Shown: piece after piece, positions 40,007-40,046 of the stretch | Position numbering within the stretch: the first letter of the stretch is position 1 | Layout: the number at the start of each line of letters is the position of its first letter | NCBI RefSeq assembly: GCF_057098645.1 | Contig: NZ_CM169472.1 | Length of the DNA: 64,000 bases | Strand: one strand, 5' to 3' | Notes under the pieces: generated by a model | What the model saw: only the letters and a program-made list of their open reading frames with translations | Databases searched by the model: none | What the model was told of the DNA's origin: nothing | Translations under genes and position numbers: made by a program

Positions 40007-40046
40007 CACGCTACCGCCCCTGGCTTTACAGCAACCAGAGCACTAT
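40007..40046 (-). promoter_or_regulatory. JUMPstart element with ops site (RfaH-dependent antitermination)
   Basis: Minus-strand sequence tagtgctctggttgctgtaaagccaggggcggtagcgtg; ggcggtagcgtg is the ops consensus; lies between galF and the first O-antigen gene. Confidence 0.85.

Follow-up and report, generated by a model that had tools for sequence, protein, structure and literature searches.

The DNA analysed here is a 64-kb window that is 100% identical to E. coli O145:H28 genomes, for example RM13514, and the gene coordinates are those of the RefSeq annotation of the identical sequence in RM13514. On the minus strand, galF (40246-41139), the conserved upstream flank, is followed by a block of 15 O145 O-antigen genes (24564-39915), which is presumed to be an RfaH-dependent unit, and then, on the 3' side of the block, by gnd, ugd and wzzB (20458-24446, minus strand). 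In order, the block contains a neuD-like gene, neuB, a neuA-like (CMP-sialate synthetase-like) gene, neuC, wzx(O145), wzy(O145), a hypothetical gene, an amidotransferase gene, hisH-like and hisF-like genes, fnlA, wbjC, wecB, a GT4 glycosyltransferase gene and wbuC. We take wbjC to be fnlB-like and wecB to be fnlC-like. The first gene, with its ATG at 39915, encodes a NeuD/NnaD-family acetyltransferase (TIGR03570, 188.6 bits versus a cutoff of 160.8). This gene content agrees with the published O145 cluster, which consists of nnaABCD for Neu5Ac and the L-FucNAm genes (PMC7685785). The block is 15.4 kb long and its GC content is 27-42%, compared with 49% in galF; the value falls from 0.49 in galF to 0.27-0.34 directly downstream of the ops element described below, and then to 0.35-0.42 in the fnl half. 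The rfaH gene is intact in RM13514 (489 nt, WP_001192396.1), where it lies between tatD and ubiD, outside the window.

A few other features of the window and of the RM13514 genome can be mentioned here. The histidine operon leader (RF00514, 13204-13327, plus strand, 130 bits) and the enterobacterial sRNA STnc240 (RF02074, 10390-10464, minus strand, 68 bits) are both ordinary for this chromosomal region. The Rfam algC RNA motif (RF02929) is present at full length at 50449-50498 on the minus strand, with 78.2 bits versus a cutoff of 33.8; it sits in the colanic-acid region, inside the 3' part of cpsB and about 780 nt upstream of cpsG (phosphomannomutase). Outside the window, RM13514 carries P2-like prophage tail and late genes (tail tube through ogrK) at 4899956-4905354, beside fieF-pfkA.

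The spacer between galF and neuD is 330 nt long. An exact ops element, GGCGGTAGCGTG, the RfaH recruitment site, is located in it at 40018-40007 on the minus strand, 228 nt past the stop codon of galF and 91 nt ahead of the neuD-like ATG (39915). It agrees with the 12-nt ops consensus GGCGGTAGnnTG and it reads 5' to 3' in the sense direction, on the same minus strand as all 15 downstream genes. The sequence-only reading of this DNA had placed an ops consensus on the minus strand, and the exact 12-mer is indeed there, on the non-template strand. The minus strand at about 40050-39995 reads ...cagatagtgctctggttgctgtaaagccaggggcggtagcgtgtgtttttgag..., and the RefSeq records have no feature annotated under the element.

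The ops is the 3' end of a 39-nt JUMPstart element, TAGTGCTCTGGTTGCTGTAAAGCCAGGGGCGGTAGCGTG, at 40045-40007 on the minus strand. The Rfam JUMPstart covariance model RF01707 matches this interval over its full length (model positions 1-38 of 38) with 52.6 bits versus a gathering score of 35 and an E-value of 3.6e-9 for the whole window; in addition, the O145 element shares 37 of 38 positions with the K-12 JUMPstart. The alignment to the JUMPstart consensus therefore agrees with the earlier identification, whose interval, 40007-40046, is the JUMPstart plus one extra 5' base (40046).

The 12-mer GGCGGTAGCGTG occurs once in the 64-kb window, even with one mismatch allowed, and both its 8-mer core, GGCGGTAG, and the degenerate consensus, GGCGGTAGNNTG, are found in the window only at 40018-40007. 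No second ops was found in the 64-kb window, for example in a colanic-acid wza leader. Judging from the RM13514 annotation, the wza leader presumably lies beyond position 64000. One might ask if the 12-mer is simply a chance match without function. In dinucleotide-preserving shuffles of the window, the degenerate consensus matched 0.07 times on average, and 6 of 100 shuffles had at least one match, so that the 12-mer by itself is only modestly unlikely. However, it is part of the full-length 39-nt family match, its position and strand are those expected, and it is kept in thousands of genomes and in several genera. The decisive evidence for the ops is its context, that is, the Rfam match and the conservation, rather than the 12-mer, and this evidence effectively refutes a chance match, which we regard as vanishingly improbable.

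The conservation is unevenly distributed along the spacer. The whole O145 spacer is common to only 37 genomes, all of the O145 type. In contrast, positions 40044-40007 recur at 95-97% identity in over 3000 E. coli genomes that belong to other serogroups, and these 38 nt are the sole part of the galF-neuD spacer that is kept at that level. An alignment of the O145 spacer with those of K-12, BL21, PS_131_S11, H19, an O113 strain and an O19:H7 strain has two invariant islands. These are the JUMPstart/ops and, upstream of it, the block GGATTT(T)CCTTGTTTC ... GTAAGACAATT. A cross-species scan with one genome per species, which searched for GTAAGACAATT followed by 75-100 nt and then ops, returned 21 loci, including E. 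albertii, E. whittamii, many Citrobacter, Intestinirhabdus, Izhakiella and Xenorhabdus. The block around the putative -35 hexamer discussed below and the 5' part of the JUMPstart are kept in these loci, although both are outside the search pattern. The most strictly invariant part of the JUMPstart is its unpaired 3' ops.

JUMPstart sequences also appear on contigs filed under Arthrobacter, Erysipelotrichia, Peptococcaceae, Lachnospiraceae and Flavobacterium psychrophilum genomes or MAGs. Several of these contigs also carry the galF flank, with up to 95% identity to E. coli, and such contigs are almost certainly contamination or mis-binned enterobacterial sequence.

Hobbs and Reeves are said to have described in 1994 the 39-bp JUMPstart upstream of the O-antigen (rfb) clusters of E. 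coli, Shigella and Salmonella. The position of these rfb elements, downstream of galF and before the first O-antigen gene, and their orientation are the same as in O145. In the literature, O-antigen clusters throughout E. coli are conventionally delimited on their upstream side by the JUMPstart, which also serves as the standard PCR primer site (PMC4732683, PMC4309606).

A boundary of this kind could be conserved mainly as a homology anchor or recombination junction for the exchange of O-antigen clusters, in which case its regulatory role in O145 would be incidental. The homology between serogroups stops exactly at the 3' end of ops, and the O145 locus looks mosaic: the promoter-to-ops segment has 81.5% identity to Citrobacter youngae, neuD-neuB-neuA have 73.6% identity to E. 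albertii, and the sequence between the two is unrelated. However, in our judgement 38 nt would be marginal for homologous recombination, and the longer galF and gnd would be better anchors. Furthermore, the divergence of O145 begins upstream of the JUMPstart, which places the junction of this serogroup away from the element. The 12-mer is also kept, and bound by RfaH, in leaders that have nothing to do with O antigen (rfaQ, wza, tssH and hly). A role as an anchor would in any case be compatible with RfaH function, and as the main reason for the conservation we consider it very unlikely.

The conserved 39 nt might also act mainly as RNA, that is, as a 5' UTR hairpin that regulates stability, translation or antitermination, and not as a DNA-level ops. 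Rfam classifies the element as a cis-reg RNA, and the 5-bp stem of the model is kept in O145. The predicted hairpin, at 40038-40020 on the minus strand, follows the Rfam consensus structure and is also present in the minimum-free-energy fold of the leader. Its stem CUGGU (40038-40034) pairs with GCCAG (40024-40020) around a loop at 40033-40025. Pairing in the stem reaches 98.8% over a set of 16 distinct sequences drawn from several genera, and both of the substitutions observed (U-G to C-G and G-C to G-U) leave the bases paired. A conserved stem-loop among JUMPstart elements has also been reported (Weinberg et al. 2010). On the other side, no double-sided, compensatory change was seen and the shuffle controls equal the observed value; with so little variation in the stem, the covariation test carries no information. 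Compared with shuffles, the leader fold has ordinary stability (z = -1.32) and lends no support to an elaborate leader structure, and, as noted above, the strictest invariance is in the unpaired 3' ops and not in the stem. Finally, RfaH is recruited through ops on the non-template DNA strand (PMC9765446, PMC2871177). We therefore consider it rather unlikely that the element works chiefly as RNA, and a DNA-level ops in the operon leader is the reading that we follow below.

The second invariant island is upstream of the JUMPstart, and we predict that it contains a promoter. A putative -35 hexamer, TTGTTT (40138-40133, minus strand), and a putative -10 hexamer, GACAAT (40115-40110, minus strand), the latter within the block GTAAGACAATT that is invariant in the alignment, stand exactly 17 nt apart, with variable sequence between them, in eight of eight E. 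coli serogroup spacers, including that of CFT073. The distance from the end of the -10 to the start of ops is 87-92 nt in the same eight serogroups and 91 nt in O145. The -35 hexamer is at least 90% conserved in the loci from other genera, where it was excluded from the search pattern. The hexamers are weak compared with the sigma70 consensus (three of six positions for the -35 and four of six for the -10). A generic consensus promoter scan did not flag the conserved TTGTTT-17-GACAAT footprint, because its -35 matches the consensus at only three of six positions. Two short motifs held at a fixed spacing across variable sequence are the pattern that a promoter under selection would leave, and we regard the footprint as a putative promoter.

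There is some published information on this spacer in K-12. Genomic SELEX has shown binding of the sigma70 holoenzyme to the K-12 galF-rfbB spacer, and the hexamers given for K-12 in that paper are TTCACA-18-TGGAAT (PMC3946193). We do not accept these hexamers as the main promoter. By our reading they are downstream of ops in K-12, they are serogroup-specific and they are not kept in O145; moreover, they are a best-match guess within a broad, low-resolution SELEX peak.

The O145 transcript is predicted to start at about 40104, if judged from the footprint, or at about 40085, if the start of the transcription unit in CFT073 is transferred to O145. Both estimates would put the start upstream of the JUMPstart and downstream of galF, about 70-90 nt before ops. 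The untranslated leader would then be about 170-190 nt long (39916-40104, minus strand). Marolda and Valvano (1998) reportedly described a 173-nt leader for O7, which would put the O145 start at about 40104, roughly 86 nt before ops.

No open reading frame of at least 20 aa was found over ops on the minus strand. An 18-codon open reading frame, MAGEAGYNFVIQIVLWLL, is present at 40026-40082 on the minus strand; it begins in the predicted leader and its TAA is inside the JUMPstart loop. It is probably fortuitous, since it has no obvious Shine-Dalgarno sequence and is not kept in other serogroups.

The O145 spacer displays some peculiarities, which we grade as minor. Position 40033 is a T in O145 and an A in nearly all other E. 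coli (CTGGTTGCTG versus CTGGTAGCTG); this A-to-T change is in the hairpin loop and it breaks the upstream (first) GGTAGC half-repeat. The first JUMPstart position, 40045, is a T in O145 versus a C. Among the sequences examined, the combination of T40033 and T40045 is present, besides O145, only in Citrobacter youngae ATCC 29220, whose promoter-to-ops segment (locus 7936-8048) is the one with 81.5% identity to O145. The exact O145 JUMPstart 36-mer is absent from the GTDB species-representative genomes, and C. youngae carries the A-to-T variant in a sequence slightly different from the O145 36-mer. O145 also has a perfect TATAAT at 40096-40091 on the minus strand; at the corresponding position the other aligned serogroups have a TTTTCGGG-like sequence instead. 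Together with GTAAGA (40119-40114), 17 nt upstream, this TATAAT could form a putative second, overlapping promoter with a start at about 40084.

The region after galF differs as well. O145 is without about 50 nt that are present in six other serogroups (window 40150-40165; alignment columns 94-149), and the missing sequence includes the 3' half of an apparent galF terminator hairpin. O145 instead has a short TCCGA...TCGGA hairpin with a T-run, a weak terminator-like structure at 40161-40145 on the minus strand that abuts the -35 region. The fold of the post-galF region is no more stable than those of shuffles (z = 0.54), which does not support a strong galF terminator. Some read-through from galF would be possible because this hairpin is weak.

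Homologs of neuD-neuB-neuA are present in E. albertii NBRC 107761 (positions 8-2190 versus window 39926-37734, 2.2 kb, 73.6% DNA identity). There they directly follow the JUMPstart, and the spacer is unrelated to that of O145. This observation suggests that a sialic-acid module is common to E. coli and E. albertii O-antigen clusters. Together with T40033, the extra TATAAT and the loss of about 50 nt after galF, the closeness of the promoter-to-ops segment to C. youngae could mean that the O145 promoter-JUMPstart module has moved horizontally apart from the neu genes and is not functionally equivalent to the common E. coli version, with an altered expression level or RfaH dependence of this sialic-acid O antigen; we consider this proposal unlikely.

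Experimental data on a homologous locus come from Hustmyer et al. (2022), who mapped RfaH, RNA polymerase, sigma70 and H-NS in E. coli CFT073 (PMC9765446). The CFT073 O-antigen ops is GGCGGTAGCGTG at 2400402-2400391 (Data set S2), the start of the transcription unit from RNA-seq is at 2400469, 67 nt upstream of ops, and the first gene starts at 2400331 (PMC9765446). The RfaH ChIP peak, which disappears in an rfaH deletion, extends over 15,375 bp (2385330-2400704) with a 30-fold enrichment and runs from the O6 genes on into gndA, ugd and wzzB (PMC9765446). The RfaH-dependent travelling ratio of the O-antigen unit is 0.34, and without RfaH, polymerase drops towards background at the distal end of the unit (PMC9765446). 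Placed on the aligned spacer, the CFT073 start is 25 nt after the conserved GACAAT, versus about 7 nt expected. This offset is compatible with a promoter at GACAAT because the boundary of an RNA-seq transcription unit is approximate.

RfaH was bound at each of the five exact CFT073 12-mers that are on the non-template strand of a leader but not at the one copy on the opposite strand, inside ushA, and ops sites within coding regions did not load it (PMC9765446). In K-12, a PCR fragment with the rfbB ops made a lux reporter strongly RfaH- and ops-dependent (PMC2871177). The O145 ops is identical to the CFT073 O-antigen and rfaQ leader ops and to the K-12 rfbB ops. The ops/RfaH system of K-12 rfb has reportedly also been a subject of work by Belogurov et al.

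The O6 unit of CFT073 resembles that of O145 in most respects: the 12-mer is identical, it is on the non-template strand of an untranslated leader, it precedes an AT-rich operon, and the same conserved -35/-10 block is upstream, with 91 nt from the -10 to ops in both. They differ in the distance from ops to the first start codon (O145, 91 nt; CFT073, 59 nt; K-12, 75 nt), and the downstream O145 genes, for the Neu5Ac and L-FucNAm pathways, are unrelated to those of CFT073 and K-12. Other RfaH-controlled operons, namely rfaQ/waaQ, wza, hly, kps and tra, share with O145 the consensus GGCGGTAGnnTG and the location in a leader, but their promoters and leader lengths differ. The hly and kps ops deviate in the last 4 nt (GGCGGTAGCATG and GGCGGTAGCATA), while O145 has the commonest form, GGCGGTAGCGTG.

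RfaH binding was measured in CFT073, whereas O145 is known here from its sequence, and a literature search for rfaH experiments in O145 found nothing relevant. We infer the O145 start site, RfaH binding and RfaH dependence from the homologous loci. The sequence-only interpretation has strong homology-based support on several grounds: the exact ops, its place on the sense strand and in the spacer, the promoter footprint, the intact rfaH and the CFT073 results. The O145 operon leader has a canonical JUMPstart with a 3' ops, which very probably acts through initiation at the upstream promoter, loading of RfaH and antitermination.

The events at this leader would be as follows; the ops pause and the details of RfaH action are established in the RfaH literature. 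The sigma70 RNA polymerase would recognize TTGTTT (40138-40133) and, after 17 nt, GACAAT (40115-40110), and would start at about 40104-40085. It would pause on transcribing ops (40018-40007), and the exposed non-template GGCGGTAGCGTG would be bound sequence-specifically by RfaH, which would then stay on the polymerase. On the polymerase modified in this way NusG would be excluded, pausing, Rho-dependent termination and H-NS roadblocks would be resisted, and the recruitment of ribosomes would be aided. As a result, the 15.4-kb operon of 27-42% GC would be transcribed to its distal genes, with probable read-through into gnd, ugd and wzzB. Presumably the distal genes of such a long, AT-rich, horizontally acquired operon are expressed because RfaH suppresses pausing, termination and roadblocks and aids ribosome recruitment.

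The earlier reading also held that the 15 genes are read as one long RfaH-dependent transcript that starts between galF and neuD. The notion of a single unit stands well with the arrangement of the genes, which are co-directional and have tight junctions: at 14 junctions the genes overlap or are at most 22 nt apart, and at one the gap is 132 nt. An end exactly after the fifteenth gene is less probable, as no terminator-like site was found between wbuC and gnd. The sole sizeable internal gap, between neuC and wzx (35801-35670, minus strand), is extremely AT-rich and is the most plausible site for an internal promoter. It contains promoter-like matches at 9 of 12 positions, and no terminator-like hairpin was found in it by our scan. 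In the scanned region as a whole there are 67 promoter-like matches versus 73 +/- 7.8 in shuffles, so the promoter scan is neither for nor against internal promoters because the matches are no more numerous than in shuffles. Weak terminator-like sites inside the genes are somewhat more frequent than in shuffles (20 versus 11.3 +/- 3.9), and these are the type of signal that the RfaH-modified polymerase reportedly bypasses.

These results bear on the possibility that ops is functional but the 15 genes are not a single transcript, with internal promoters or galF read-through making the block only partly RfaH-dependent. The promoter-like matches in the 132-nt gap and the weakness of the post-galF hairpin both fit this possibility, as does the difference in GC between the modules, which suggests mosaic assembly. 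Cryptic internal promoters are also common in H-NS-silenced genes (PMC9765446). However, the promoter-like matches do not exceed those in shuffles, the other 14 junctions leave little or no intergenic DNA, and in CFT073 the occupancy by RfaH and RNA polymerase is continuous from the single leader ops, and distal polymerase drops towards background when RfaH is absent (PMC9765446). Overall, a block divided in this manner seems improbable to us, and a single RfaH-loaded unit is preferred.

The 3' end of this unit is likely to be farther downstream than wbuC. Read-through into gnd, ugd and wzzB is probable, both because there is no terminator-like site past wbuC and because the CFT073 ChIP peak continues over the corresponding genes. 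A strong 10-bp hairpin follows ugd (21617-21595, minus strand), and the first convincing terminator-like site is a hairpin with an eight-T run after wzzB (20476-20458, minus strand), which faces the convergent hisIE. These two hairpins are the likely 3' ends of the read-through from the O-antigen operon. A more accurate description would be one RfaH-loaded unit with its start at the spacer promoter and probable read-through as far as gnd, ugd and wzzB.

In conclusion, the O145 JUMPstart/ops is a canonical and already known leader signal of O-antigen operons. The JUMPstart/ops before E. coli O-antigen clusters has been described since 1994, has been a routine PCR anchor and has been mechanistically dissected, so its discovery value here is little. 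Its confirmation in O145 nevertheless helps annotation, since no feature is recorded at this site in RefSeq, and the element marks the true 5' boundary and the regulatory leader of the O145 O-antigen operon. One caution is that the transcription unit is likely longer than the 15 serogroup-specific genes and extends into gnd, ugd and wzzB. We predict that mutations in rfaH or in ops would abolish expression of the O145 antigen in this EHEC serogroup.
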